Shown here: positions 12,315 through 39,195 of the stretch, piece after piece
Position numbering within the stretch: the first letter of the stretch is position 1
How the letters are laid out: every line of letters starts with the position of its first letter
Origin: Candidatus Aenigmatarchaeota archaeon
GTDB lineage: Archaea > Aenigmatarchaeota > Aenigmatarchaeia > Aenigmatarchaeales > Aenigmatarchaeaceae
Assembly: GCA_043802485.1 (NCBI GenBank)
Contig: JAZDKZ010000006.1
Coordinates: 64,001 to 128,000, forward strand
DNA: 64,000 bases
Direction of reading: 5' to 3'
The notes under the pieces: generated by a model
The model's input: the letters and a program-made list of their open reading frames with translations, nothing else
Told to the model about the DNA's origin: nothing
Databases searched by the model: none
Program-made: the position numbers and the translations under genes

Positions 12315-13633
12315 ATCTTGAAACCTTTGAATCTCTTCATCATATTGCCCATCATGCCGCGTTTGCCAGAGAACATCTTCAACACCTTCTTCATCTGCTC
12401 ATAAGTCTTCATCAGTTCCCTGACCTCTGCCTCTGTTGTTCCTGAACCCTTGGCAATCCTCTTTACCCTTGACGGGTTTATCAGCTGCGGGTCCTGCTTC
12501 TCCTGCTTTGTCATCGACTGTATTATGATGGCCCATTTCTTCATCTTGTTCTCCTGCTTGTCAGCGTCAAACCCTTTGGGCATCTTCATTGCCGACATGC
12601 CAGGAACCATGTTCATCATAGAGCTCATCGAACCCATCTTCTGCATGGATTTCAGCTGCTCGTAGAACTCGTCCATGTTGAACTTACCTGTCATTATTTT
12701 TTGAGCAGTTTCCGGTTTGATCTCCGCTTCCTTTGCCTTTTCAAGAAGGCCCTGCATGTCGCCAAAGCCTATCATTCTTGAGATGAACCTCTCGGGGTCA
12801 AAGACTTCGATAGCATCGACCTTCTCCCCAGTGCCTATGAACTTTATTGGCGCTCCTGTCACTGCACAGGATGTCAAAGCACCACCACCTCTGGCAGTTC
12901 CATCCATCTTTGTAAGAAACACGCCTGTTATACCAACGAGCTTCTTGAAACCTTCTGCTTGTTCTCCTGCAGCCTGACCGAGTTCAGCCGGTATTGTCAG
13001 CAATACCTCGTCAGGTTTCACCAAATCTGCCAGCTGCTTCAGCTCCTTTGCCAGTTCCTCATCCAAAGAGCTTCTTCCTGATGCGTCGAAAATAATGATG
13101 TCATATTTCTTGTGCTTGTTCAGCCCGTTCTTCACAATCTCCAGCGGGTCCTTGATGTCCTTCGGAGCGTAACAGGGAACGTGAATCTGCTCTGCCAATT
13201 GCGAAAGCTGGTCCATGGCAGCAGGCCTGTGAACGTCGCAACCGATTAAGGCGGGTCTCAGACCCCTTTTCTGGTAGAACTTTGACAATTTGCCGATGGA
13301 GGTGGTCTTGCCAGAACCGAAAAGGCCCACAAACATTATCCTTCCAGGCTTCAGCATCAGCTCGGTCTTCTCGCCAACGAACTTTACCAGCTCGTCATAA
13401 ACGATTTTGGTGACATGCTCCTTCGGTGTCAAGCCCTTGGGTGGCTTTTCGTTGACAGCTCTGTCCCTTATCTCGTCTGTCAGCTTTTGCGCAAGCTTGA
13501 TATTGACATCCGCCGATACTAGGGCCTTGTAAATATCGCTAGACAAATCCTCGACTATCTTCTTGTCGACATAGCCTGCCTTTGTCAGTTTTCTCAGGGC
13601 ATCCTTTATGCCGCTGCTTAATCTGTCCAGCAT
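12311..13633 (-). CDS. srp54: signal recognition particle protein SRP54
   Basis: GLFGSGKTT, DVHRPAA, TKMDGTARGGGA, Met-rich M domain with SRVKRIAKGSG. Confidence 0.97.
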   Translation of the reverse strand: MLDRLSSGIKDALRKLTKAGYVDKKIVEDLSSDIYKALVSADVNIKLAQKLTDEIRDRAVNEKPPKGLTPKEHVTKIVYDELVKFVGEKTELMLKPGRIMFVGLFGSGKTTSIGKLSKFYQKRGLRPALIGCDVHRPAAMDQLSQLAEQIHVPCYAPKDIKDPLEIVKNGLNKHKKYDIIIFDASGRSSLDEELAKELKQLADLVKPDEVLLTIPAELGQAAGEQAEGFKKLVGITGVFLTKMDGTARGGGALTSCAVTGAPIKFIGTGEKVDAIEVFDPERFISRMIGFGDMQGLLEKAKEAEIKPETAQKIMTGKFNMDEFYEQLKSMQKMGSMSSMMNMVPGMSAMKMPKGFDADKQENKMKKWAIIIQSMTKQEKQDPQLINPSRVKRIAKGSGTTEAEVRELMKTYEQMKKVLKMFSGKRGMMGNMMKRFKGFKI

Positions 13634-13715
13634 AACTAACAGATTAAGTTTTGATTTTTTTAAATCTTGTCTTTGCCTGATATTCAATTATTAATTTATA
13701 GTCTGAATCTATAAT

Positions 13716-14861
13716 ATGGGAAGATTCATTTTCATCAAGGGCAAGAACCCTGTCTTATCCAAGTTGGAGTTGGAGTCATATTTTCAGAGTAGGTGCGTCA
13801 AATATTCAATTGTTGACGATTCAGACGACTTTACCATCATCGACGCTAAAATCGATCCAAAAATGATAGATTCTTTGGGAGGGACCCTTAAGATTGCCGA
13901 GCTGATAACCGAGTGCGAGGATATAACGCCAGAAGCAATGAAAGACGTCGAGAAGATGATAAGCGCTAGGGTCTTTGGTCTGAGCGTCTATGCTGAAAAA
14001 AGGGAGCACGGGATTTACAAGCTGGTCGGAAAGACGCTGAAGGAGAACCTAAGGGAGAACGGGGTCAAGGCCAAATATCTGGGCTTTTCCATAAGCAGAA
14101 GGCCCCAGATGAGCAATGTCGAGCTCATCAAGAGGAAAATCCTGGAGGAGAGCGTTGAGGTTGTTGTGTGTTATTCTGACAGGTTCTACATAGGAGTCAC
14201 CAGAGCTCTGCACAATCCCTTTGAATACCAGAAAAGGGACATGGAGCGCCCTGAGCAGAGGCCCATATTCTCCATACCGCCCAGGCTTGCGAACATTCTC
14301 ATCAACCTTTCAGGGGCAAAGCCCGGCGACTTGTTGTTGGATCCTTTCTGTGGTATAGGCACCATTCTGCAGGAAGCTGCGTTAAGGGGTATGAGGATAG
14401 CCGGCATAGACAAGGACCCGAGTTGTGTGGAGGCTTCGAAGATAAACCTGCATTGGCTTTCCGAAGAGTACAAGCTGGAGATAGACGACGGCATGATAGG
14501 CTTTGGTGACGCGACAAGGCTCAGCGACAACTTTTTGAAAGATTCAGTGGATGCTATTGCTACAGAGCCTTACCTTGGTCCGCCGCTGAGGGGTAGCCAG
14601 AGAGAGAACGAAGTCAGGAAGATATTCAGGCAGCTCGAGCCTATGTACGCAAAGTCTCTGAGGGCCATGGGCAGGATTCTGAAGAAAGGCAAAAGGGTTG
14701 CCATCATATCCCCTTGTATAAGGATGCATAAGGGCAAGGCCGCCCATTTCGAGTTCCAGAGATTGGCAAAGGCTGCCGGCTTCAAGATAATCGAATCGGT
14801 GATTGATGCCGAGAAGAGGCATGTGACCCAGAGGGAAATATTCATCATAGAGAAAAGATGA
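13716..14861 (+). CDS. tRNA (guanine10-N2)-methyltransferase Trm11/TrmG10-like
   Basis: RP...SIPPRLANILIN, LDPFCGIGTIL, TEPYLGP. Confidence 0.85.
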   Translation: MGRFIFIKGKNPVLSKLELESYFQSRCVKYSIVDDSDDFTIIDAKIDPKMIDSLGGTLKIAELITECEDITPEAMKDVEKMISARVFGLSVYAEKREHGIYKLVGKTLKENLRENGVKAKYLGFSISRRPQMSNVELIKRKILEESVEVVVCYSDRFYIGVTRALHNPFEYQKRDMERPEQRPIFSIPPRLANILINLSGAKPGDLLLDPFCGIGTILQEAALRGMRIAGIDKDPSCVEASKINLHWLSEEYKLEIDDGMIGFGDATRLSDNFLKDSVDAIATEPYLGPPLRGSQRENEVRKIFRQLEPMYAKSLRAMGRILKKGKRVAIISPCIRMHKGKAAHFEFQRLAKAAGFKIIESVIDAEKRHVTQREIFIIEKR

Positions 14862-15314
14862 TTAGAAGCTACCCTTGTAACAGTGTTTCAACTTCTTGTC
14901 ATGATTCGTCTTCTCATATTTTTCAATGAATCTTTCCTCGTCCAGATAGTGCTTGCCTTCAATGTAACGGTTCTTGTAATTTTTCACAACAAGATACAGC
15001 TTCTCAAGCTTGGAGAAGAGCTCATCCTTTCTTAGCTCTTCTAGCTTATCAGAATTTTTATCAATCAAGTCAAAGAAATCGATCAATGTCATTTTTTCCT
15101 TCAGAAGGTGAAGCCTTCTTTCTATTGCATCCACAGCAATCTGCTCACAGTAGACATCTCCAGTCAGGTAAAGAATGGCTCTTGCCTCGTTGACTTCATC
15201 CCAGCTGGGGTTTTCCTTGTCCAGTATGTTCTGGTATCTGTTCCAGAGCCTTTCCAGCTCTCCCTCTACTTTTTTCGGCTCCAGCATATATGTATATTTC
15301 ATTAGTTCTATCAT
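14862..15314 (-). CDS. hypothetical helical protein
   Basis: 150-aa ORF co-oriented behind ftsY. Confidence 0.7.
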   Translation of the reverse strand: MIELMKYTYMLEPKKVEGELERLWNRYQNILDKENPSWDEVNEARAILYLTGDVYCEQIAVDAIERRLHLLKEKMTLIDFFDLIDKNSDKLEELRKDELFSKLEKLYLVVKNYKNRYIEGKHYLDEERFIEKYEKTNHDKKLKHCYKGSF

Positions 15315-25461: not shown

Positions 25462-26712
25462 ATGTCAAAAGAACTTGAATCTATTGGTTTGTATAAAAAG
25501 TTAATAGAATTCTCTAGCGATGCCATTATCATGGTTGATAAACTAGGCAGGTTTGCATTTGTTAATAAAAAAACTTTAGAAGTTACAGGTTATAAAGAAA
25601 AAGAATTAATAGGAAAGGGTTTTAAGAAATTAGTCCCAGCTAAACATCTTCCCAAAGCTATTGCCATGCTTAGAAAGGTGAGAAGAGGTTTAGGAATTAA
25701 ACCGTTTGAAATCGAGGTCAGAACTAAAGGTGGCGTATTGATACCATTTGAAATGAACGGTTTAGCTGTTAAAGATAAAGGAAAAAATATTGGAGTTCAA
25801 GTGATTGCAAGGGACATTACCGAGCGCAAGAAAGCAGAAGAGATTCTGAGAAAAAGCGATGAAAAATACAAGATTATATTTGAAGGAACGGCTGATGGCA
25901 TTCTTGTTGCTGATACTAAAAGCCATAGATTTATTTTTGCTAATCCCAGAATTTGTGAAATAACAGGCTATTCATTAAAAGAATTGCTTAAACTAGGAGT
26001 AGGTGATATTCATCCTAAGAAGGATTTGCCTTTTGTAATTGACCGGTTCACAAAACAAGCGCAGAAGAAAATAACTCTCGCCAGAAATATTCCTGTTCTG
26101 AGAAAAGATAAAAAAGTGGTTTATTGCGATGTCAATTCCAAACCCGTAACAATTGACGGACAAGAATATTTAGTGGGCTTCTTTAGAGACATCAGTGAAC
26201 GTAGAAAAACTGAAGAAAAAATAAAATATGAAAAAGAATTTTCTGAAACTATTCTCAACATAATGCCTGTTGGATTAGATATTGTTGATAAAGATTGTAT
26301 TATTCGATTTATGAATAAAACTTTCTTAGACGTTTTTGGAAAAAAGGCTTTAGGAAAGAAATGCTATGATGTTTATAAAATAAATAAAAAGCAATGTGAC
26401 GGTTGTTCTTTAAAAAAACCAATAAAAATTGGTGAGACAAAAACAATAGAGGTTGGGAGTATTGTAGGCAACAAAACGTTTTTGATATCGCATACAGGGA
26501 TTTTATTTAATGGAAAAAAACACATTCTGGAAGTTTTCAGGGATATCACAGAGATTAAGAAGTCAGAAGAGGTTTTGAGAAAATCACACGAAGAATTAGA
26601 GAAATTCTACAAAGTTGCTGTAGGCAGAGAATTGAAAATGATTGAACTGAAAAAGAGAATAAGAGAATTGGAAAGTCCTAATTCAGGAAACCAAGGAGAA
26701 AGAAGAACATGA
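25462..26712 (+). CDS. multi-PAS sensor protein with C-terminal coiled coil, no kinase domain
   Basis: Three PAS/PAC units ending RDITERK, RDISERR and RDITEIK; terminal RELKMIELKK. Confidence 0.9.
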   Translation: MSKELESIGLYKKLIEFSSDAIIMVDKLGRFAFVNKKTLEVTGYKEKELIGKGFKKLVPAKHLPKAIAMLRKVRRGLGIKPFEIEVRTKGGVLIPFEMNGLAVKDKGKNIGVQVIARDITERKKAEEILRKSDEKYKIIFEGTADGILVADTKSHRFIFANPRICEITGYSLKELLKLGVGDIHPKKDLPFVIDRFTKQAQKKITLARNIPVLRKDKKVVYCDVNSKPVTIDGQEYLVGFFRDISERRKTEEKIKYEKEFSETILNIMPVGLDIVDKDCIIRFMNKTFLDVFGKKALGKKCYDVYKINKKQCDGCSLKKPIKIGETKTIEVGSIVGNKTFLISHTGILFNGKKHILEVFRDITEIKKSEEVLRKSHEELEKFYKVAVGRELKMIELKKRIRELESPNSGNQGERRT

Positions 26713-27713
26713 AAACAATAGGGATTGTTGTTATTGTTGTGATTGGGATTTTAATTGGCAGTTATTACTTCTTTGTGTATGGGGCAGACGTAACTGAAAA
26801 GCCAGCAGAACTTGAGAAAGTTACTGTAACTGCATATGAGGGGGATGTCGCTGTTCTAGTCTATATAGCAAAAGAAAAGGGTTATTTCGAGGAAAACGGT
26901 CTTGACGTGACAATAAAAAGTTATGCTTCTGGCAGGCTTGCTGCCGATGCGTTATTAGCTGATGAAGCTGATGTCTCTACTTCAGGAGATTTTGCATTTG
27001 TGAGCGATAGTTTCGCTAATGATGACTTGAGGGTTTTCGGCACAACATCTTACTTTGATTTATGTGAAGTGGTTGCTCGGAAAGACAGAGGCATTTCAAA
27101 CCCGAGCGATTTGAAGGGAAAGAAAATCGGGGTTCTTAAAGACGGTGCTCCAGAATTCCATCTCGGGACATTCTTAATATTCAATGGTCTCTCTTTAGAG
27201 GATGTGGAAATCGTTTATTTGAGTGCCGCTGAAACAGTTGAAGCTATCATAGACGGAGAAATCGATGCCACAATGATATGGAACCCATACGCTTATACCA
27301 TAAAGAACAGCTTGGGTGACAACGCAATAAGCTGGCCCGGTCAAAACGGGCAAAGAATGTACTTTCTGCTGCTTTGCAAGGAGAAATGGATAAAAAATAA
27401 TCCTGACACGGTTAAAAGGTTTACGAAAGCCCTTGTTGAGACAGAAGAATATGCAAAGGCCAATGAAAAAGAAGTTAAAGAGTTTACTATACATAGATTT
27501 GGTTACGATGCTGATTATTTTGAATCCATATGGAAAGAGATTGACATTTCGGTTGAAATATCCCAGACAATGCTGGTTACATTGGAAGGCCAAGCACGAT
27601 GGAGAATTGTTAATAATCTAACAGATAAAACCGAAATCCCTAATTATTTGGATTACTTTTACACAGATGCTTTGGAAGAGGTTAAACCAGAGTCCGTAAC
27701 AATAATACGCTAG
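26709..27713 (+). CDS. SsuA/NMT1-type substrate-binding protein, membrane anchored
   Basis: IAKEKGYFEENGLDV, DLKGKKIG, GEIDA..IWNPY. Confidence 0.9.
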   Translation: MKTIGIVVIVVIGILIGSYYFFVYGADVTEKPAELEKVTVTAYEGDVAVLVYIAKEKGYFEENGLDVTIKSYASGRLAADALLADEADVSTSGDFAFVSDSFANDDLRVFGTTSYFDLCEVVARKDRGISNPSDLKGKKIGVLKDGAPEFHLGTFLIFNGLSLEDVEIVYLSAAETVEAIIDGEIDATMIWNPYAYTIKNSLGDNAISWPGQNGQRMYFLLLCKEKWIKNNPDTVKRFTKALVETEEYAKANEKEVKEFTIHRFGYDADYFESIWKEIDISVEISQTMLVTLEGQARWRIVNNLTDKTEIPNYLDYFYTDALEEVKPESVTIIR

Positions 27714-27733
27714 CTGGGCACGGTAGATAAAAA

Positions 27734-29359
27734 GTGAAAATAAAAAACAAACTCCTCATAGGGATTATACTCTCAATTACATTTGTTGTTATAGTGTCAT
27801 CTGTAATGTTCCTGTCTAATAAAGAAATAAATAAAAAAAATAAAGAACACCAAGCGACAGATGATATACGTCTGGCTGTATCAGAGCTCGATATAATCAT
27901 GTACGAGTATCTATTGTATCACGAAGAGAGGATGATACAGCAATGGAATTCTAAATATGATTCAACAGCGAAGACTCTGGCAGAATTAGAAGAGTTAACT
28001 GTAGAAGAATCAGAAGAAGAATTAATAACATCAATACGCGATGATTATACCGTTTTTGGTGCTTTATTTTCGCAAGTAACTGCAGCTCATGACAAAAGAC
28101 AGACACTCATTCAAGAAGGAGCTTCTCAAGAAGAGATCGATGAGACTGCTCGTTTAGAAGAAATAATGGTTGCCCAGATGTTAACGAGAGCACAAAGAAT
28201 AATCACTAGTACCACCTTTCTTTCTGACATTTCGCACAAGAGTACGATTAGAATTCAGTCACAAAACAACGACTTGATTTCATTTTTTAGGACTATTCTT
28301 GTTATCTCTATAACGTTTACATTGGTCCTTGTTGGCAGAAGCATCTCAAAACCCCTTGATAAACTAGTAAAGGGGGCAGAAAAAATCGGCAAAGGAAATT
28401 TCGAATATAGAATTGATGTCAAATCAAAGGATGAGATGGGAGAACTCGGTTCAGCTTTCAACAGGATGGCTGCTGATTTGAAAAAATCAAGAGATAAGAC
28501 TGAGAGATACGGTGGAAGTCTTGAAAAAAAGGTTGCTGAATTGACAAAAACTAAGACTGCTATGCTAAATATGACGGAGGATTTGGACAGCACTAACAAA
28601 AAGCTTTTAGAAACCCAGAAAGCTTTGAAAAAGAACTTTAGGTCTCTGGAAAGCTTGGACAAGGAAAAGGACGCTTTCATATCAATATCGGCGCATGAAT
28701 TAAAGACCCCGATAACTGCGATACATGGTTTTGCTCAGCTTTTGGAGAATGAAGACGTGATTAAGAATCCTGAGATGAGAAAAAAATATTTGAAAATAAT
28801 AGACCAAGAAACAAAGCGTCTGGGAAATCTGGTAACGGAAATACTTGATCTTTCTAGGATAGACCTAAATACGGTCAGGTTCACCAAAGAAAACATAAAT
28901 CTCTATGAAGTTCTGGAAAGTATAAAAGAGGAGGAAGAAACAAAAATAAAGAGTAAGGACCTTAAAATAATTCTTGATTTGCAAAAAGACCTGCCTATTA
29001 TCTATACTGACAAAGAAAAAGTCACACAGGTATTAATAAACCTAATAGACAACGCTATGAAATACACTCCAAAGGGGGCTATAACAGTCAAAGTGATTAG
29101 GAAAGGGGATGGCATTCAGGTTTCAGTGTCTGATACAGGCTTGGGCATACCAAAGGAAAGTTTCAAAAAAATATTTACCAGATTCTATCAAGTCGACTCT
29201 TCCTACACAAGGAAAGTTGGCGGTTCGGGGTTGGGCCTTTCCATCTGCAAGGAGTTTATCAATGCGCTTGGTGGTAGGATATGGTTTGAAAGCAAGGTTG
29301 GAAAGGGCAGCACGTTCTATTTTACTTTACCGATAAGAACAAGACGTAAAAAATTATGA
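27734..29359 (+). CDS. membrane sensor histidine kinase (2 TM, HAMP, HisKA, HATPase)
   Basis: SKDEMGELG HAMP; AHELKTP H-box; NLIDNAMKY, DTGLG and GGSGLGL boxes. Confidence 0.96.
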   Translation: MKIKNKLLIGIILSITFVVIVSSVMFLSNKEINKKNKEHQATDDIRLAVSELDIIMYEYLLYHEERMIQQWNSKYDSTAKTLAELEELTVEESEEELITSIRDDYTVFGALFSQVTAAHDKRQTLIQEGASQEEIDETARLEEIMVAQMLTRAQRIITSTTFLSDISHKSTIRIQSQNNDLISFFRTILVISITFTLVLVGRSISKPLDKLVKGAEKIGKGNFEYRIDVKSKDEMGELGSAFNRMAADLKKSRDKTERYGGSLEKKVAELTKTKTAMLNMTEDLDSTNKKLLETQKALKKNFRSLESLDKEKDAFISISAHELKTPITAIHGFAQLLENEDVIKNPEMRKKYLKIIDQETKRLGNLVTEILDLSRIDLNTVRFTKENINLYEVLESIKEEEETKIKSKDLKIILDLQKDLPIIYTDKEKVTQVLINLIDNAMKYTPKGAITVKVIRKGDGIQVSVSDTGLGIPKESFKKIFTRFYQVDSSYTRKVGGSGLGLSICKEFINALGGRIWFESKVGKGSTFYFTLPIRTRRKKL

Positions 29360-29575
29360 AGCGAGTTTAATCTTATATTTTTTGTAAATCGGCGTAAATT
29401 TAGCTTTAGCCGTCTCCTCTCCCGTCAGTCTTGATAAGAAGAATGTGCACTCATCTAGGAAATCTTTTGGATATTTCTCTGGGTCTTCAAAGGAGTCTAG
29501 CTGCTTGGCTACCATTTCTCCCAACAGCTCTCCTATAACTTTTTTCGCATCATTTTTCAAAGTCAAGACATGCAC
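29354..29575 (-). CDS. small helical hypothetical protein
   Basis: 73-aa ORF, last of a tightly packed minus-strand group. Confidence 0.6.
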   Translation of the reverse strand: MHVLTLKNDAKKVIGELLGEMVAKQLDSFEDPEKYPKDFLDECTFFLSRLTGEETAKAKFTPIYKKYKIKLAS

Positions 29576-29579
29576 CTTA

Positions 29580-29918
29580 TCATCCCTTTATGTACTCCAA
29601 GTACCTTTTCTGGAGCATGAAGCAGCCAATGAAAAATATTATGGACCCTATTGAACATAGGACTAGTATATGTATAGAACCGTAAAGTGTTTTCGGAAAG
29701 CCGCCGTGTATACCAGAAAGACAAACAATTTCCCCCGTTTGATGAAGTATTGCGAACAAGAACATTCCAGAACCTATCATAAACGCGTATTTTTTGAACT
29801 TTTCTCCGCCAAAAAATTTTAGAAATCCTATTAACATAACAGTTCCGATTATCAAGAAAAAAGCGCTATATACTTCAGCACCAAGTATTTCCCAGTGCGC
29901 AAGAGTCTCAATCACCAT
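29580..29918 (-). CDS. small His-containing membrane protein
   Basis: Three hydrophobic segments, FAILHQ; resembles 29908-30240. Confidence 0.7.
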   Translation of the reverse strand: MVIETLAHWEILGAEVYSAFFLIIGTVMLIGFLKFFGGEKFKKYAFMIGSGMFLFAILHQTGEIVCLSGIHGGFPKTLYGSIHILVLCSIGSIIFFIGCFMLQKRYLEYIKG

Positions 29919-30240
29919 CCTTTTTTCTCCTTAAGGACAAAAGACTCGTAATCTCTTTTTTTAGAAGAACGGCTGCGGCAAAATACGACGTAGTCAGCAA
30001 GACTGAGATAATCAAGAACTGCATTTCGAAATTTTGTAAATCATACAATCCGTGTATTACTTCAAGGCCTTCGTGAAAAATAGCAAAAGAGATTATAACA
30101 ACGCACATGAAAATCGAATAGATTTTGGATTTTTTCGAGCCGAATTTTAAGAAGAATCTTATAAGGAAAACCGCACCAAGAGTAAGGAAGAGCATGCTTA
30201 TCGCATCTGCCAAAACCATCTCCAAAGGAACATATGTCAT
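29908..30240 (-). CDS. small His-containing membrane protein
   Basis: Three hydrophobic segments, FAIFHE. Confidence 0.7.
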   Translation of the reverse strand: MTYVPLEMVLADAISMLFLTLGAVFLIRFFLKFGSKKSKIYSIFMCVVIISFAIFHEGLEVIHGLYDLQNFEMQFLIISVLLTTSYFAAAVLLKKEITSLLSLRRKKDGD

Positions 30241-30701
30241 TCGTACATCTCCGTCAACGCGCCGACAATGGCATAACTCAGCACCGAGTACAGTATGAGC
30301 GACTCTCCAATGCCCACAAAAGGCATTACAGAGCCTGTCATGCTTGGATTAAGGCCTGCCAAAGAAAATCCTGCCGTAGTGAGCAAATGGCCCAATAGTC
30401 CCATTCCGACTGTTATCTCGCCAAGACCCCATCTTATGTTAAGCTTCTCTACTCTGTTTTTTATCCTCAAATCATAGAGCAAAAAAAGCAGTAGAAAGGA
30501 TATGCAGAGACTATGAACATGCGCTACCTTTAAAAATGAAGGTATCTCTTCACCGCTTGACAGCATCTCAGCCATTTTGAGCCCTATCCAGAGCGCATAA
30601 ACTACCATAAAATATATTGTGTACAGATACACCTTTCTGATGGAACTTTTCCAGCCATTTATGGAGCCAGTGTCTTCTGGTTTATCTGGCATTTTTTTCA
30701 T
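30237..30701 (-). CDS. four-TM membrane protein with AHVH motif
   Basis: Hydrophobic segments, LKVAHVHSLC. Confidence 0.7.
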   Translation of the reverse strand: MKKMPDKPEDTGSINGWKSSIRKVYLYTIYFMVVYALWIGLKMAEMLSSGEEIPSFLKVAHVHSLCISFLLLFLLYDLRIKNRVEKLNIRWGLGEITVGMGLLGHLLTTAGFSLAGLNPSMTGSVMPFVGIGESLILYSVLSYAIVGALTEMYE

Positions 30702-30801
30702 AAAAAGTATTTGTCAAGGCCGTACTTAAAAGATAGTTTTTATATGCTCGCAAGTAACAAATTATTTTATATATTCGCTTGAATAACAATTAAGTGTTTT
30801 A

Positions 30802-31170
30802 ATGGCCAAGAAAATAATGGTTGTGGACGACGAGATAAACATAGCAGAACTTGTCAAAGCTATACTTGAGCATGAAGGGTTCGAGGTTATAGGACTGAAT
30901 AACGGACAAGCGTGCTTGGAGAAATTGAAAACAGTCAAACCGGACCTGATACTCATGGACATGATGATGCCTAGGATGAGCGGACGAGAAACAACAGAAA
31001 AAATAAGGGCCAACCCAAAAACCAAGAACATCAAAGTTGCATTTCTAACCGTGGCAAGGTTCTCTGAAGTGGGCAAGGGTAAGCTAAGGGATTTGAACGT
31101 CTCGGATTACATCACAAAGCCTTTTGATAATAACGACTTGATAGAGCGCGTGAAGAAGGTTGTCGGCTAA
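30802..31170 (+). CDS. stand-alone response regulator receiver (CheY-like)
   Basis: VVDDE, LMDMMMPRMSG, LT, ITKPF. Confidence 0.95.
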   Translation: MAKKIMVVDDEINIAELVKAILEHEGFEVIGLNNGQACLEKLKTVKPDLILMDMMMPRMSGRETTEKIRANPKTKNIKVAFLTVARFSEVGKGKLRDLNVSDYITKPFDNNDLIERVKKVVG

Positions 31171-31706
31171 TCAAGATCCATTGTTTTGTCTGCAAACATT
31201 TTCAAGTCATTGATTAATTCTCTATTTTCTTTTTCTGGAACACTGTCACTTTTCAGAGCAATGAAAATTTTTTTGACATCTTCATTCTTGTTAGTTAAGC
31301 CATGAGTAAATTGAAGTACAGAGAAGCTTTCTTGATATATCAATAAAGCAGATATTGTGTCAAAAAGCAAGACGTTGCATTTTTGCTTTTTGATTACATT
31401 CTCTATTGCCCGCTTGATCATTTTTATGTTGTTTGGTGAGCTGACAAACGTACAATTCCTATGCGATTTTAATTTTTCATAATGGCTGCTTAGAACATCA
31501 ACAAAGAAGAAGAATTTTGTATTTATTTTGTTTTTCCTCAATTCGTTCAAGACATCTTTATATGGCCTGCTTAGGCACACATAGCATATCTTGCTCTTTG
31601 ATTTCTCTACAGATAGGACTATCTTGTTTAGCTGATTCATGTATTGTGCTTCGCTTAGCAAAATAAGTAAGAACTTGTTCTGGGTTGTTTCTTTTATAAT
31701 ATTCAC
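31167..31706 (-). CDS. inactive KaiC/RecA-fold protein
   Basis: CYVCLSRPY, FFVDVLS, LLFDTISALL..Q, FAD; no Walker A. Confidence 0.65.
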   Translation of the reverse strand: MNIIKETTQNKFLLILLSEAQYMNQLNKIVLSVEKSKSKICYVCLSRPYKDVLNELRKNKINTKFFFFVDVLSSHYEKLKSHRNCTFVSSPNNIKMIKRAIENVIKKQKCNVLLFDTISALLIYQESFSVLQFTHGLTNKNEDVKKIFIALKSDSVPEKENRELINDLKMFADKTMDLD

Positions 31707-31751: not shown

Positions 31752-31787
31752 TATATGTTTAAACATATAGAATTATGTTTAAACATA
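31752..31787. promoter_or_regulatory. two tandem palindromic operator-like sites between divergent genes
   Basis: TATATGTTTAAACATATA (31752-31769) and TATGTTTAAACATA (31774-31787), centres 20 bp apart. Confidence 0.6.
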
Positions 31788-31825
31788 TAAGTAATATATA
31801 TAAATATAGAAAATAATAGTTTAAT

Positions 31826-31945
31826 ATGTCAATTCTCCATTACGGTAACACTACAAAAAACGGAGAGACACTGAACAGATCAAAGAATCATCTTTCTGAA
31901 AAAAACAACGAACTAAACGGGGCTATCGAATTTGTCGGGTATTGA
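31826..31945 (+). CDS. 39-aa candidate RiPP precursor (MSILHYGNTTKNGETLNRSKNHLSEKNNELNGAIEFVGY)
   Basis: ATG after an AT-rich promoter region; TGA overlaps the UbiA ATG (TGATG); C-terminal ExxxY; absent from ORF track. Confidence 0.65.
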   Translation: MSILHYGNTTKNGETLNRSKNHLSEKNNELNGAIEFVGY

Positions 31946-32742
31946 TGATGAAAGATATAACCAGAAACTTGGTAGGCTTTATAAGACTTAAAGTCTGCAT
32001 TTTCATAAGTACGATAGGAATTATCGGGTTTCTTCTTTTCAACAATATTGGTGTTAAGCTGTTATTTGTCTTTTTGGCGTCGTTCCTGATATCCGCTGGC
32101 TCCTATTCCTTGAACAACCTGACAGACACTAAGGAAGACATGATAAACAGAAAAAAAATCAATCCCTTTGTTCTTGGTAAGAGGGGCTTTATACTGGTTT
32201 CTCTCCTTTTTCTTTCTGGACTGTTTTTTTCAATGTTTCTGTCTTTTTATTCAATCGTATTTTCTTTGATAGGAATTCTGACGAGTATACACTATTCCTA
32301 CTTTAAGCTCAAGAAATATTTTTTGGTGAAAAATCTTTACACCGGTTTTGGAATCAGCATAGTGTTTTTGGTCGGCACCAGCAAAATAGGTCTCGACGTT
32401 TTGTACTATTACTTTCTAATCCTGTTTTTCATTGTGATTATGAGTATGATTTCTGATCTTAGAGACTATGTTGGAGACAAGGCGATTGGTTTCAAAACTC
32501 TCCCAGTTTTTTTGGGATACAGCAGAGCATTGAAAATAGTATCTGCGTTGATAAGCATATTTTCGTCGTCTCTTCTCCTTTTTAGTCGCATTATAATCCT
32601 TCTGCCTTTTTCTCTGGCAATAATGTATTCCCTTTACAAGAACAAACCTTTGGTTTCGCATACTTTGGGTTTGTATTCCTTTATTTTTCTAATGTTTTGG
32701 TTAGTTCTAGGAAGTGTGTTTAATGTGTATGGTTACGTTTGA
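31945..32742 (+). CDS. UbiA family prenyltransferase
   Basis: NNLTDTKEDMIN and SDLRDYVGDKAIG.KT Asp-rich motifs, multi-TM. Confidence 0.9.
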   Translation: MMKDITRNLVGFIRLKVCIFISTIGIIGFLLFNNIGVKLLFVFLASFLISAGSYSLNNLTDTKEDMINRKKINPFVLGKRGFILVSLLFLSGLFFSMFLSFYSIVFSLIGILTSIHYSYFKLKKYFLVKNLYTGFGISIVFLVGTSKIGLDVLYYYFLILFFIVIMSMISDLRDYVGDKAIGFKTLPVFLGYSRALKIVSALISIFSSSLLLFSRIIILLPFSLAIMYSLYKNKPLVSHTLGLYSFIFLMFWLVLGSVFNVYGYV

Positions 32743-33772
32743 GTGGGACAATTGTGACGCAAGGGAGAAGGTAAGAAAATTTGAAATGACAAATTCTCTA
32801 AGCTGGGTAGTTTTGGAGCTTACAAGCCTTTGTAATTTTAACTGTGTTTGGTGTTACGCTAATTCGAATACTCATGGTAGTCATATGAGTAAGAAAGATT
32901 CAAAAAGAATCATTCGTTTGCTAGCCGACAATGAAATAAGACAGATCACTTATTCAGGGGGAGAACCTTTGATGTACCCTTACATCAAGGATGTTGTGAG
33001 AGAAGCCCATGAGTATGGTATGGTTGTTCACATGAATACAAACGGCTACTTTCTAACAAAAAAGATTGCCGAGGAGTTGCGAAGACTTGGTCTATCTCAA
33101 GTTCAGATAGACATTGATAGCCTAAAATCTGAAACACATGACAGAATACGAGGTAAAAGCAACTCTTTCTATAGGGCGGTTAACGCATTAAAAAATGCGA
33201 AAGAGGTTGGTATAACATGTGTTTGTCAAACAGTATTGACCAAAGTCAATGAAAAGGAAGTTTTAGACATATTCAAATTTGCCCGCAGTTTAGGAATACA
33301 GCGTTGCAGGGTTTCTGACATGACTCACGAAGGCCGCGCGACAGAAAAGTCGGATATGAGACCGACTGATTATATGAAAACTCTTCAGAGTCTTTCTGGA
33401 TTTTCACACAATACAGGTGTAAAAAGCATAGAATGTGGTGATCCTATATTTCCTTTGAACTATAAAGATGAGACTGAGATTACGGGAGGTTTTTGTCCTG
33501 CAACAAAAGGCATGTTTACTCTTATTTCTAATCATGGCGGTGTTTATTTTTGTGGCGTATACAGAAAATTACTATACAATGTTTTTAATCTCATAGAACA
33601 TGGAGAAAATTTGAAAGAATTTCACAAGATGAGACTCGAAAAGTTCTTAGAAAGCAATATTCCTTCCAAGTGCGGAGGCTGTAGGCATTACAAAATTTGC
33701 CGTGGCGGCTGTCCTGCCAGACGGGATTGCGAGAAAGATATCGTTGATTACTGGTGCAATAACTTTAATTAA
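32714..33772 (+). CDS. radical SAM/SPASM domain protein (PqqE/MftC-like architecture)
   Basis: CNFNCVWC, SGGEPL, TNG, SPASM cysteines C..G......C and CGGCRHYKICRGGC. Confidence 0.93.
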   Translation: MCLMCMVTFEWDNCDAREKVRKFEMTNSLSWVVLELTSLCNFNCVWCYANSNTHGSHMSKKDSKRIIRLLADNEIRQITYSGGEPLMYPYIKDVVREAHEYGMVVHMNTNGYFLTKKIAEELRRLGLSQVQIDIDSLKSETHDRIRGKSNSFYRAVNALKNAKEVGITCVCQTVLTKVNEKEVLDIFKFARSLGIQRCRVSDMTHEGRATEKSDMRPTDYMKTLQSLSGFSHNTGVKSIECGDPIFPLNYKDETEITGGFCPATKGMFTLISNHGGVYFCGVYRKLLYNVFNLIEHGENLKEFHKMRLEKFLESNIPSKCGGCRHYKICRGGCPARRDCEKDIVDYWCNNFN

Positions 33773-34787
33773 AATAAGTTATTACCAGTTTACCATGCTT
33801 GCATTTCTTATCATTTATTCTGAATTTTTTATCAATAAGCCACAGATAACCTAAAATCACTTCTGCTAAAAAATCCCAGTTATCTTCTTCTATCTGCATT
33901 CCATGCGGCAGGTTACTTATTTCGAATAAAATTCTATTTTTTTTGTTTATTATATTCACGACGCCCCAACCCATAGAATGGAGTAAGGTTTTAATCATAT
34001 TGAGTTTCTTGTCGCATGATGATTTTTTTATTATAATCTGTCTGAAGAAATCGTAAGATATTTTCGGTACTTTGTCCAAGAGTATTTTTCTATTGCCTAG
34101 TATATGAAATCCGGTATTTTCCACATACCACAAGTCCTTTCCTCTGAAAAGGATTCTATTTGAATCCCCCTTTAGCTGAAATATGCCAGACTCCAGGACA
34201 CTTTTCAATGTTATTCCCTTCGATCCAGAAGAGAGATTTAGTCTGTCATACTGCTCTTTTTTCTTTGATGGTAGAGGTGAGAATTTTTTATCTAGCAATT
34301 CGTAGAAATACCTGCAGCTTTTTCTCGTCTGTATTTTTTTACTACAAAACACTTGAGAACTGAATAAAACATTTAGTATGCCTGCATAAAAACCTGTCAG
34401 ACACTCATTCTTTCCTATTAGCCTTGTTACAGTCTCTTCTCTTGTCTCTATTAGAATCTTGTTGTTTTTTTTGATAGCGTGCAGGTCTGAAAGCAGACCC
34501 AGATTTATCCAAACCTTTTTCATTATATTATTCAGAAAGAATATCGGAGTTCTTTTGAAAATGTTAGGAACCATTCTGTCCATAACAAGATTCATCCATT
34601 TCTGCCCAATCTCGGCTATTTCAGCTTCATGACCAGAATTTTCGCATAATTTTACATAATTTGCTATAATCTCTTCAAAAATTAAGACGTTTCTTCTACT
34701 TTTTATTTTGAATCTGTTTGTAATCCATCCAGTATTAGTCTGTATTAGATTTTTTCTTATAGAAACGGATAGCCTCATATCAAACAA
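33765..34787 (-). CDS. tandem V4R-like domain protein
   Basis: CLTGFYAGILNVLF...C.Y and LHSMGWG patterns; directly behind a KaiC ATPase. Confidence 0.55.
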   Translation of the reverse strand: MFDMRLSVSIRKNLIQTNTGWITNRFKIKSRRNVLIFEEIIANYVKLCENSGHEAEIAEIGQKWMNLVMDRMVPNIFKRTPIFFLNNIMKKVWINLGLLSDLHAIKKNNKILIETREETVTRLIGKNECLTGFYAGILNVLFSSQVFCSKKIQTRKSCRYFYELLDKKFSPLPSKKKEQYDRLNLSSGSKGITLKSVLESGIFQLKGDSNRILFRGKDLWYVENTGFHILGNRKILLDKVPKISYDFFRQIIIKKSSCDKKLNMIKTLLHSMGWGVVNIINKKNRILFEISNLPHGMQIEEDNWDFLAEVILGYLWLIDKKFRINDKKCKHGKLVITYFN

Positions 34788-35454
34788 TCTTGGCGGTCGA
34801 TAATTTTAAGCCTTTTTTGTTGATGAACAATTCGTGATTCACTCTCGGGTCAAAAGACGTATAACGAAGTTTGCAAATCTCCAGCGTCCTTTTGGGTTTC
34901 TCCTCAAGGTCCAGGAAGGATATGTGCAAGACGCCGTCGACCTCGAACGACTCGCTGTTCCCGCTATCAATGTCTTCTCCAACAGTCTCGCAAATGAGCA
35001 GGCTGCATTTAGATTTCTCCTTCAGATACTTTATTATGTCCGACAATTTTATCCTGTATTCCTTCTTGTTCTTGGCGTGCATGAGAATCTTGTTGACGTT
35101 GTCTATGACAAGCCTGTCCACTTTGGGATATTCCAGGAAAAGCTTTGCCAGCTGCTCTAGGTTTATTTTCTCGCCCAGGGGCAGGCATTCTATGAGCAGG
35201 TTCTTGTCTATGTAATTTTTCGCTTTTTTAAGGCTGGTTATGCTTTCGCATGCTCTTAGTAGCTCTTCCTTGCTCTCTGAAACAGAAAGATAATAGCACC
35301 TTTCTCCCTTTGCAGCGCCCTCGACTAAGAAGTTTAAACCTATCAAAGTTTTTCCTGTGCCAGGGCCACCGGAAAGAAGAATAACAGTTCTAGAGGGAAA
35401 CCCACCTTCTGTCAACTTATCCAGTCTTGGCAAACCTGTTGTTATTCTCATCAT
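34780..35454 (-). CDS. KaiC/RAD55-like ATPase
   Basis: RITTGLPRLD..TEGGFP, GGPGTGKT, LVID, VDG, KLR. Confidence 0.92.
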   Translation of the reverse strand: MMRITTGLPRLDKLTEGGFPSRTVILLSGGPGTGKTLIGLNFLVEGAAKGERCYYLSVSESKEELLRACESITSLKKAKNYIDKNLLIECLPLGEKINLEQLAKLFLEYPKVDRLVIDNVNKILMHAKNKKEYRIKLSDIIKYLKEKSKCSLLICETVGEDIDSGNSESFEVDGVLHISFLDLEEKPKRTLEICKLRYTSFDPRVNHELFINKKGLKLSTAKIV

Positions 35455-35777
35455 TCATCACCAAATACAGGCTTTCCTATCGTTGATTCCTGTAGTTTTA
35501 TTAAAAGAAACTTTTCATCGCCCAAGTCAAAGACTTGTGACGGCGCCTTTTTTATAAGACTTATGTCATGCCTTTTCAGTATCTTGTTGGGCAGCATTAT
35601 TCTGTTGCTGTTGCCTAGCTTTCCGGTTGTAAGCGACTCGCTCAATATGCTCATCTCAGTGGGCAACAACAGGAGCTTTTTAGTGGACTGCTTCAAAAGA
35701 CCATACTCTTTTTTCGTCAGCTCAAGCTTAACAAGAATCTTGTCGTTTTTCATATCCATGGAGTCTATATTTGCCAT
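35451..35777 (-). CDS. AbrB/MazE-like DNA-binding protein
   Basis: TGKLGNSNRIMLPNKIL resembles the swapped-hairpin signature. Confidence 0.55.
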   Translation of the reverse strand: MANIDSMDMKNDKILVKLELTKKEYGLLKQSTKKLLLLPTEMSILSESLTTGKLGNSNRIMLPNKILKRHDISLIKKAPSQVFDLGDEKFLLIKLQESTIGKPVFGDE

Positions 35778-37682: not shown

Positions 37683-38150
37683 CTAATCTTCCTTCTTCTT
37701 GAAGAACAGCCAGTTCTTAGGTGGTTTGAACTTCACCAGAACGTAGCTGCCTTTCAGCTTTTTGCCCTTTATGTTGAATATTATCTTTTTTGGCTTCTTA
37801 TCTATTAATTCGAATGTACCGTTGTCCCATATCTTTACTTTTCCTGCCCCATATTGTTCTTCAGGTATTGAGCCCTCAAAGGTAGCATAGTCTAAAGGGT
37901 GGTCTTCTACCTCCACAGCCAGAAGTTTCTTTCCCTTCAATGTCAACAACGGATCTTTAGGTATGGCCCAACTTTTTAGCACACCATCAAACTCAAGGCG
38001 AAGGTCATTATGTAAATGGCTTGCCCAATGACGCTGTATTACATAAGTAAAATGGTTCTTTTTATTGTTTGTTTTATTAATCTTTCCTTTAGGTTCAGTT
38101 GTGCCTTTTTTGTCCCGTTTACGTTTTTTTACGTATTCATTTAGAGACAT
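37683..38150 (-). CDS. stand-alone LigD 3'-phosphoesterase domain
   Basis: VIQRHWASHLHNDLRLE.DGVLKSWAIPK, VEDHPLDY..FEG.IP..YGAG. Confidence 0.92.
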   Translation of the reverse strand: MSLNEYVKKRKRDKKGTTEPKGKINKTNNKKNHFTYVIQRHWASHLHNDLRLEFDGVLKSWAIPKDPLLTLKGKKLLAVEVEDHPLDYATFEGSIPEEQYGAGKVKIWDNGTFELIDKKPKKIIFNIKGKKLKGSYVLVKFKPPKNWLFFKKKED

Positions 38151-39195
38151 GGATAAAACCTCGTTTTTTTGAATGGTACCTTTCTCTGGCTCTTTTATTC
38201 TTCTCTAGTTTCTTTTCTTCAGACTCGTTATCTTGCCATTTGTATTCATAGCATTTTACTGGGCATTTTCCGATATAGTTTAGAAATTTCTGATTATCGG
38301 ATTTCTTTATTGCTATTTCATAACCATTATTATTTTTTACTATTCTGCTTTTTATTTTCAAATGTTTTTGAAATAAACCCTGAAGGAAAATTATGTCTTT
38401 CAGAGAAAAATTATCTGTACATAACTTTATTTCTCTATAGAAATTTCCATCACAAAGATAAAATTGCAGCATGCTGTCAGGATTGAATATAAAATCTTTA
38501 GGTATGTGCTTTATGCTGCTTTTATTATACCACTTTTTTCGCATCAATTCAAATGTTCTGTAACGATGAGTTTGTAAGAAGCTTTCAGGATATCCACCAT
38601 TTTTACACCTCGGGTCGTTTCTCTTTCTTGTTAATAACGGGCTGAATGTTATTCCATATTTTTTGGCTCTTAAAATTATATACTTTAGGTATTCTCTGTA
38701 TTTACAGCATTGTGTATATGACCTAGCTTTACCCCCTTTTCTAAGAGGTATGGAACCATCTCCCATTAATAGACCATCAAAAAAAGCTACGCAATTTTTA
38801 GTTAGTTCAAACTCTTTAGGTGGATGGGAGATATTCATCTGTTCATAAGATGTTCTTACAGGTATCTTTAGTCTTTTCATGTATCTTCTTATCACAGTTC
38901 TTTCTATTCCAGTTTCTAACGATAAGCCCTTGATAGATTTTTTTAATTCAATATAATTTTTAATGAAAAAATCTTTTGTTAGAATGTTAATATGCTTCAA
39001 TTTGCCTCCTGGTGATGATATAGTTGCTTGTTCTTTATGCGATCTTAGTTTTATTTTGTTTGATAAAGCATATCTTTTAACTGTTGTCCAGTCTGCGCCA
39101 ACTTTGTTAGCGATTTGTGTTATAGACTTTTTATTTTTGACATATTCCCTGTTAAGAAAACTATGAGTTAAAATATCGTTATAAATGTTTTTCAT
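38137..39195 (-). CDS. free-standing LAGLIDADG endonuclease with two N-terminal HTH-like repeats
   Basis: FFDGLLMGDGSI and LQFYLCDGNF; repeats Y...KKSI.........T..RY......RS/RT; AT-rich. Confidence 0.85.
   Translation of the reverse strand: MKNIYNDILTHSFLNREYVKNKKSITQIANKVGADWTTVKRYALSNKIKLRSHKEQATISSPGGKLKHINILTKDFFIKNYIELKKSIKGLSLETGIERTVIRRYMKRLKIPVRTSYEQMNISHPPKEFELTKNCVAFFDGLLMGDGSIPLRKGGKARSYTQCCKYREYLKYIILRAKKYGITFSPLLTRKRNDPRCKNGGYPESFLQTHRYRTFELMRKKWYNKSSIKHIPKDFIFNPDSMLQFYLCDGNFYREIKLCTDNFSLKDIIFLQGLFQKHLKIKSRIVKNNNGYEIAIKKSDNQKFLNYIGKCPVKCYEYKWQDNESEEKKLEKNKRARERYHSKKRGFIHVSK

Follow-up and report, generated by a model that had tools for sequence, protein, structure and literature searches.

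In pyrroloquinoline quinone (PQQ) biosynthesis, the radical S-adenosylmethionine (SAM) enzyme PqqE joins a Glu and a Tyr of the peptide PqqA and binds the chaperone PqqD, and auxiliary clusters act as electron acceptors in related two-electron oxidations, according to PMC9012708. In archaeal signal transduction, PMC5847659 calls KaiC ATPases signalling hubs. The window analysed here, a stretch of 64,000 nucleotides (nt) from contig JAZDKZ010000006.1 (positions 64,001 to 128,000) of a Candidatus Aenigmatarchaeota archaeon, touches on both: like the PQQ and mycofactocin loci, it pairs a short open reading frame (ORF) that ends in Tyr with a radical SAM enzyme whose cysteines are of the SPASM type, with a UbiA prenyltransferase gene between them and V4R-fold and KaiC-like genes facing them. 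A sequence-only reading of the window took the short ORF for the precursor of a ribosomally synthesised and post-translationally modified peptide (RiPP). Here, we show that the peptide is not conserved at homologous loci and is most unlikely to be the substrate of the radical SAM enzyme. We somewhat favour the view that the UbiA and radical SAM genes form the biosynthetic arm of a self-regulating cassette, whose prenylated, non-peptide metabolite would be sensed by the V4R protein, the locus being apparently one version of a widespread, undescribed archaeal prenyl-metabolite/sensor cassette.

The window belongs to a 0.77-Mb archaeal genome (G000) that is 89% complete and that, judging by named homologs and Atlas clusters, probably falls in Aenigmatarchaeota. 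Three overlapping ORFs are confirmed: the 39-amino-acid (aa) mini-ORF at 31826-31945 with the C-terminus GAIEFVGY, whose TGA (31943-31945) overlaps the ATG of the UbiA gene at 31945; the UbiA gene, whose end (32742) overlaps the next gene; and the radical SAM gene. This layout and the neighbours (V4R-fold protein, KaiC-like ATPase, PAS, histidine kinase and response-regulator genes) agree with the sequence-only reading, except that the radical SAM gene most likely starts at ATG 32723 and not at GTG 32714, judging by the resulting start MCMVTFEW against the family consensus MCxVTFDW.

Loci for comparison were gathered with a profile of the radical SAM enzyme. Metagenomes gave 163 confirmed loci, of which 80 were kept and the 48 closest used, and 27 of the 371 surveyed genomes of the phylum (probably Aenigmatarchaeota) were also recovered. 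Merging at 90% identity yielded 60 groups, 47 with a usable UbiA anchor (a few anchors sit on broken or extended ORFs and are unsure) and 41, the window included, with at least 350 nt upstream of UbiA. UbiA lies directly upstream of the radical SAM gene at nearly all loci having sequence there. An ORF with the ExxxY motif abuts UbiA at 0 of the 40 other independent loci, where the single other ExxxY match is antisense and inside another gene; upstream of UbiA we found either a bare promoter or a ~375-aa LeuA/homocitrate-synthase-like gene, sometimes plus a second UbiA gene. We also screened the intergenic ORFs of 18-90 aa at 56 loci, 277 in all; this returned neither a homolog of the mini-ORF nor a conserved ExxxY peptide, and it was able to see small proteins, because other conserved ones were recovered. 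The PqqA/MftA-like RiPP that had been proposed therefore fails for want of a conserved peptide ORF at homologous loci, and with it the expected conserved C-terminal E...Y; the ExxxY motif had been chosen after the fact and is lacking from the sole homologous mini-ORF. A protein scan of genome contigs matched only a 97% identical twin, on a contig filed under Nanoarchaeota, and among the matches listed from contigs of four DNA runs no frameshift or joint was seen in the mini-ORF.

What recurs at these loci is a larger unit. By the union of its marker genes, the cassette is present in 51 of the 371 genomes, with a V4R-like gene in 47, a radical SAM ortholog in 26 (a distant one in genome G004 was left out of this count) and a LeuA-like gene in 21; the V4R-like gene accompanies 24 of the 26 radical SAM genomes and 19 of the 21 LeuA-like genomes. 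We then compared 49 one-per-genome loci chosen by radical SAM, LeuA-like or V4R gene rather than by UbiA, omitting two of the 51 genomes in which contigs end at the V4R-like gene. Some UbiA is encoded in 46 of these loci, the three misses lying at contig ends. V4R-like genes occur in 42, radical SAM in 26 and LeuA-like genes (~375 aa, below all cut-offs) in 22; a pyridoxal-phosphate aminotransferase occurs in 12, always together with the LeuA-like gene (12/12). Polyprenyl-synthase-like (4), geranylgeranyl-reductase-like (3) and methyltransferase (3) genes are rarer. The slot behind UbiA holds a radical SAM gene (26), a polyprenyl-synthase-like gene (4) or a third UbiA type (2), or is empty, with reductase-like and methyltransferase genes in or beside it, and the radical SAM gene never occurs together with the polyprenyl-synthase-like, reductase-like or methyltransferase genes. 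The general order is an operator, an optional LeuA-like gene, one to three UbiA genes and one exchangeable enzyme, facing a V4R-fold/KaiC-like/small-protein module. In the window, the corresponding features are as follows, with the evidence in brackets.

31755-31766 and 31775-31786, no strand: two copies of the palindrome ATGTTTAAACAT, probable operator (counts, homologous promoters)
31797-31804, plus strand: TATA-box-like TATATAAA, 29 nt upstream of the mini-ORF ATG (sequence)
31826-31945, plus strand: 39-aa mini-ORF, where relatives have the LeuA-like gene (spacing, similarity)
31840-31857, no strand: 18-nt stretch within the mini-ORF, putative DNA-level element (common to genomes G003 and G002)
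31945-32742, plus strand: UbiA-superfamily intramembrane prenyltransferase (PF01040, Asp-rich motifs)
32723-33772, plus strand: radical SAM enzyme, 349 aa, putative optional tailoring enzyme of the cassette (PF04055, Cys pattern)
33765-34778, minus strand, family start at 34778: V4R/H-NOX/Bet3-fold protein, candidate ligand sensor (predicted model, fold match)
34780-35454, minus strand: single-domain KaiC-like ATPase (PF06745, 124 bits)
35451-35777, minus strand: conserved 108-aa protein with the motif TGxLGNxNRIMxP (alignment)
31167-31706, minus strand: DUF835-like or inactive KaiC-like divergent gene, common promoter region (PF05763 below cut-off)
25462-31170, plus strand: flanking signalling genes for a multi-PAS protein, an SsuA-like solute-binding protein, a HAMP histidine kinase and a response regulator

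The doubled palindrome is a probable operator of the cassette: the window holds 2 copies of ATGTTTAAACAT against 0.05 expected, TGTTTAAACA is found at this locus alone in the whole genome, and the core GTTTAAAC recurs in 42 of the 54 promoters compared across homologous loci, whereas 0.8% of shuffles contain it. The TATA-box-like element was read by archaeal promoter spacing, and we infer a leaderless mini-ORF transcript; a sigma-70 promoter scan is uninformative for an archaeon.

The radical SAM enzyme matches PF04055 at 110 bits and combines CX3CX2C with the C-terminal seven-Cys auxiliary-cluster pattern of SPASM/twitch enzymes: C261, C280, C320, C323, C333 and C348 are present in 73 of 73 rows and C329 in 71 of 73, and the N-terminal C5 in all 61 rows that extend to that position. 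The earlier SPASM label is thus borne out by the cysteines, while Pfam SPASM (PF13186) has no match on the window protein. None of the 25 best NCBIfam models shown reached its cut-off, the scores in bits against cut-offs being 131/400 for GeoRSP, 127/500 for NirJ2, 118/500 for AhbD, 112/650 for AhbC, 112/265 for MftC, 77/381 for PqqE and 71/450 for Tes, so that the enzyme falls short of the PQQ/mycofactocin, Ahb/NirJ and Tes family tests run. Its family counts 229 matches (E ≤ 0.001), of which the 120 best share 46-97% identity, with no characterised member among the libraries searched. The predicted model (predicted local distance difference test, pLDDT, 93) places one strand and one helix, ~30 residues, before CX3CX2C, which leaves no room for a RiPP recognition element (RRE), and PF05402 is not matched; some RiPP enzymes work without one. 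Fold matches at 14-25% identity mix peptide and small-molecule enzymes, with SuiB and SkfB among the top ones and anSME also matched, and tetraether synthase is the second-best Protein Data Bank (PDB) sequence match of the profile. The tree of the enzyme is a quick version comprising family members and four distant rows only.

Genome G004 encodes a 33% homolog of the enzyme with the same MC..TF start. There (L158:7949-11169), two radical SAM genes, one of them this homolog, separate the genes for geranylgeranyl diphosphate (GGPP) synthase and isopentenyl phosphate kinase, whereas in G000 these two are direct neighbours; both radical SAM genes encode candidate isoprenoid-modifying enzymes. More distant homologs (27-30%) with an MC.V.F N-terminus occur in phage-like marine contigs (L080, L083, L084, L085, L089, L098 and L101), mostly beside tryptophan-halogenase-family genes (Pfam-confirmed for L083).

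The UbiA protein scores 77 bits against PF01040 (cut-off 34) and has the membrane fold and the two Asp-rich motifs of its superfamily, NNLTDTKED and SDLRDYVGD, with N58, D62, E65, D66, D172, D175 and D179 invariant in 40 aligned rows. Its closest solved structure is an archaeal digeranylgeranylglyceryl phosphate (DGGGP) synthase, models of which are also its best matches; the equivalog cut-off is not reached (55 bits vs 296), and the haem O synthase model has no match. The two other UbiA proteins of the genome branch far from the clade of this protein in a FastTree phylogeny. The genome further encodes GGPP synthase, isopentenyl phosphate kinase, geranylgeranylglyceryl phosphate (GGGP) synthase and a glycerol-1-phosphate (G1P) dehydrogenase-like gene, while searches of the 89% complete sequence turned up neither HMG-CoA reductase nor aconitase. 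It also has two full-length, stand-alone LeuA/CimA-type genes (C1 43187-44746 and C6 9516-11087), although the search for members of the aconitase/LeuC family gave none; the products of both genes have no obvious downstream route.

Small hydrophobic molecules are ligands of the V4R fold. The V4R-like protein of the window, probably two tandem domains (predicted model, pLDDT 91.5), has no Pfam sequence match and was assigned to the V4R/H-NOX/Bet3 fold by structure, with Z 9.6 to MJ1460 V4R, H-NOX and the phenol sensor PoxR (root-mean-square deviation 3.1-5.8, ~130 aligned residues), a likeness to sensors that bind phenol or haem/lipid; V4R is annotated in 12% of the members of its Atlas cluster, and its profile matches 244 representatives at 50% clustering. 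The KaiC-like gene is conserved behind the V4R-like gene, and the module faces the enzymes convergently. The 108-aa protein could be an AbrB/MazE-type DNA binder, a weak lead suggested by PF04014 matches in 3 of 17 members (best E 0.037); it has no PDB match. Between G000 and G003, UbiA (45% identity) and the V4R protein (46%) have diverged faster than KaiC (69%), the small protein (72%) and RNase Z (86%).

Several further observations concern the module. Full-length structural look-alikes of the tandem V4R protein (searched as 33765-34787; template-modelling score 0.72-0.76) fall in large unnamed Atlas clusters of Actinomycetota and Thermoplasmatota. Behind the module, L038:13140-13286 and seven loci like it encode a conserved zinc-ribbon protein of 48 aa. 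In some cassettes, the V4R-like gene is separated from the KaiC-like gene by a coiled-coil-like ORF of 33-38 aa, as at L037:2962-3063 and at three similar loci. Extra V4R, KaiC, DUF116, TrmB, AMP-ligase-like and UbiA genes lie upstream of some cassettes at L058:1146-3849, L163:1453-4381, L192:4284-6268 and L164:1556-2311, suggesting nested or duplicated sensor-synthase modules.

Around the cassette, a gene similar to the DUF835-like one is found upstream at many loci, and two-component genes like those of the window stand beside many, but not all, cassettes. Small membrane proteins are encoded on the minus strand amid the flanking signalling genes, where an unannotated 73-aa protein with the motif PEKYPKDFLDEC (29354-29575, minus) is conserved behind the histidine kinase at 6 independent loci. 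On the other side, a 352-aa ORF (38137-39195, minus) between a LigD-type phosphoesterase-like gene and RNase Z resembles, by eye, a LAGLIDADG homing endonuclease.

Several comparisons bear on the origin of the mini-ORF. The UbiA tree groups the window protein with rows that, where the upstream gene is known, have a LeuA-like one, and separates it from a large clade lacking that gene; in L072, which shares a 12-row clade with the window, the C-terminus of the LeuA-like gene abuts UbiA, and the same-genus genome G001 keeps promoter, LeuA-like gene and UbiA. The operator-to-ATG spacing is 49 nt in the window vs 48-50 in G003, G001 and L032, and residues 1-16 of the mini-ORF resemble the LeuA-like start (pairwise, 7 of 3000 shuffles as good). 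G003, also of the same genus, has the doubled operator followed by a 32-aa ORF that matches 8 of the first 12 residues and lacks ExxxY, the resemblance covering the first 12 codons only; its UbiA gene is followed at once by the V4R-like gene, the radical SAM gene being absent. Since these codons were kept although four-fold sites have reached saturation between the two genomes, G000 and G003 (23-34% identity), a neutral relic alone was rejected as a complete account. The 18-nt stretch is common to the G003 mini-ORF region and also exact at a non-coding intergenic site of G002 behind ribosomal protein L12 (L200:1506-1523), which points to DNA-level constraint; a variant lies right after a tRNA-like CCA end in G003 (L201 near 1515, minus). 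The motif, thus present in three genomes of the genus, is possibly a protein-binding or recombination site. Overall, the mini-ORF is probably a remnant or coupling element, which may be kept for translational coupling into UbiA or as carrier of the DNA element, and a functional leader is the less likely, rather doubtful option.

Two ideas on the mini-ORF were rejected. C-terminal LeuA ancestry had DNA shuffles in its favour (6/500), but the protein tests are not significant. The 18-mer is not a phylum-wide element, with 7 matches vs ~25 control matches in the 371 genomes by manual count; by estimate, one match in a viral contig is within chance, and Rfam gave just two below-threshold chance matches.

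The pathway that we somewhat favour would run as follows. UbiA would attach to a small acceptor a polyprenyl chain supplied by the GGPP synthase of the genome. In full cassettes, the aminotransferase would convert an amino acid to a 2-oxo acid, which the LeuA-like enzyme would condense with acetyl-CoA to a 2-substituted malate as acceptor, a step that we take to resemble condensations of secondary metabolism such as the benzylmalate synthase type. The LeuA-like product is not obviously carried on via chain elongation, because the aconitase/LeuC family was found in 0 of 5 genomes tested. With the LeuA-like gene lost in G000, core metabolism or the two stand-alone LeuA/CimA-type enzymes would supply the acceptor there. 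The radical SAM enzyme may oxidise, desaturate, cyclise or decarboxylate the prenylated product, filling the slot held elsewhere by a reductase, chain synthase, methyltransferase or extra UbiA. The V4R protein would bind the hydrophobic product, and its signal may reach the operator and the nearby two-component genes by way of the KaiC-like ATPase and the 108-aa protein. As far as gene context shows, the prenylated, membrane-soluble product read by V4R/KaiC that the sequence-only reading envisaged can be retained; its peptide origin cannot.

A peptide pathway, in which the enzyme would cross-link or decarboxylate the C-terminal Glu/Tyr of the 39-aa peptide and UbiA prenylate it, is highly improbable and would require recent lineage-specific recruitment. 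The tight TGATG coupling would suit it, and so would the rarity of ExxxY within the last 8 residues (10 of 2959 random short ORFs of the genome); yet such an ORF is missing from the 40 other loci and from the 56-locus screen, and the mini-ORF homolog of G003 lacks the motif in a cassette without the radical SAM gene. The mini-ORF shows 0 of 120 differences from its 97% identical twin, but it lies within a 254-nt identical block reaching into UbiA, and blocks of 207 and 200 nt occur elsewhere. SuiB and SkfB are among the top fold matches, though such matches are at 17-23% identity with small-molecule enzymes among them. A stand-alone PqqD is encoded elsewhere in the genome, but a peptide and a radical SAM gene of its own accompany it. 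An RRE is found neither within the enzyme nor alongside it, and no protease among the conserved neighbours, as the sequence-only reading had cautioned. Outside the window, the same genome holds a likelier RiPP candidate (L219:6580-8166; G000:C6, about 13579-15165): a 67-aa peptide with a hydrophobic Ala-rich core and a leader-like stretch that we take to resemble the YxAP type, followed by genes for a 361-aa radical SAM protein and for the stand-alone PqqD, which exceeds its Pfam cut-off.

Lipid tailoring is a more serious contender, possible if unlikely: UbiA would be a second DGGGP-synthase-like enzyme acting on an unusual backbone of an alternative ether lipid, the radical SAM enzyme or reductase would modify isoprenoid chains, and V4R/KaiC would merely regulate. 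It is consistent with the best matches of UbiA to DGGGP synthase models and structure, with the tetraether synthase match, with the reductase-like and polyprenyl-synthase-like genes in the same slot, and with one family whose cassette borders on isoprenoid-precursor genes, among them an isopentenyl phosphate kinase above cut-off. The other precursor labels in that block, given by eye, are putative. However, GGGP synthase, a G1P dehydrogenase-like gene and two distant UbiA proteins are already encoded in the genome, the Tes score is far below its cut-off, LeuA-like and aminotransferase partners and a fast-changing set of enzymes are unusual for bulk lipid synthesis, and the cassette was not found in 320 of the 371 genomes searched. 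A prenylated quinone-like or haem-like cofactor, made by an AhbD/NirJ-type enzyme with a haem O synthase-like or quinone UbiA, seems improbable. NirJ2 and AhbD are among the top NCBIfam scores, the V4R protein matches H-NOX haem sensors (Z 9.6) and the methyltransferases weakly resemble UbiE/MenG, but the scores are far below the cut-offs, haem O synthase finds no match in UbiA, and the conserved neighbours, only some clusters of which were library-scanned, include no recognised genes of haem, quinone or respiratory metabolism.

A number of points weigh against the sensed-metabolite cassette as we picture it. Its chemistry, product and sensing are inferred from gene context, and its anatomy also fits lipid tailoring under metabolic control. 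Since the cassette-bearing genomes, mostly incomplete, are kin, with 42 of the 46 other V4R-positive genomes within one block of families, co-occurrence is counted as more independent than it is. For P0002-P0005, the closest homologs at 57-60% identity, most gene contexts lie outside the sample. No exporter is conserved across the cassette loci, in line with an earlier caveat. Only a modest link joins the mini-ORF to the LeuA-like gene: its N-terminal half is significant in pairwise tests but not by profile (147 of 2000 shuffles), its C-terminal half is not significant against the LeuA-like protein (421 of 2000 and 1097 of 3000), and the 18-nt stretch may not derive from LeuA, because it also occurs outside the cassette.

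With the false RiPP lead removed, a testable pathway stands in its place, in which synthase and candidate receptor are neighbours. Direct expression is feasible both for the minimal form, UbiA with the V4R module (G003), and for the two-enzyme form of the window. That genomes of ~0.7-1.4 Mb keep a regulated multi-enzyme cassette in many versions suggests that the product matters for symbiosis or cell-cell signalling. Tentatively, and as a rather unlikely extension, the cassette might be an archaeal autoinducer system of a new chemical class, with lineage-specific prenylated signals, swappable tailoring enzymes, and a tandem V4R receptor, KaiC-like ATPase and operator. If so, it would offer the first concrete ligand source for archaeal KaiC/V4R signalling, and an uncharacterised radical SAM family would act on an isoprenoid product in nano-sized archaea. 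No published description of the cassette was found in searches of openly available full-text papers. The DPANN quorum-sensing gene survey PMC7567580 has no mention of UbiA, V4R, KaiC or radical SAM in its main text by term search, and PMC8204110 reports an unannotated Aenigmarchaeota-specific protein module and has a supplement that could list cassette families.

Set against known systems, the locus departs from PQQ and mycofactocin in that the peptide is not conserved, no RRE lies in or beside the enzyme, scores are far below the cut-offs, and protease or PqqB/C/MftE-type genes are not among the conserved neighbours. With DGGGP synthase, Tes, GDGT-MAS and geranylgeranyl reductase it has in common the UbiA fold with both Asp-rich motifs and partners that act on isoprenoid chains; unlike DGGGP synthase, its UbiA forms a separate clade beyond the housekeeping UbiA proteins, and unlike Tes and GDGT-MAS, its radical SAM enzyme is shorter, below the Tes cut-off, and coupled to LeuA-like, aminotransferase and sensor genes. 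LeuA/homocitrate synthases resemble the ~375-aa DRE-TIM enzyme, which has no regulatory domain and is paired with an aminotransferase, whereas the cassette has no recognised isomerase or dehydrogenase, the aconitase family is found in 0 of 5 genomes, and the partners are prenyltransferases. Archaeal KaiC modules, for whose role as signalling hubs PMC5847659 cites Makarova 2017, also place a single-domain KaiC-like ATPase beside V4R-fold and DUF835-like genes and two-component systems. Here, in contrast, the module is tied to biosynthetic genes that form an operon under an operator of their own, a link absent from the accessible portions of PMC5847659. LuxI/LuxR and AfsA/ArpA cassettes and the DmpR/PoxR V4R sensors share the pairing of ligand-making enzymes with a ligand-binding regulator, both fast-diverging; no homologous synthase or receptor family was seen with LuxI/LuxR or AfsA/ArpA, and the likeness, drawn from general knowledge, is architectural only. 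By this analogy, the cassette would work most like a synthase-receptor cassette.

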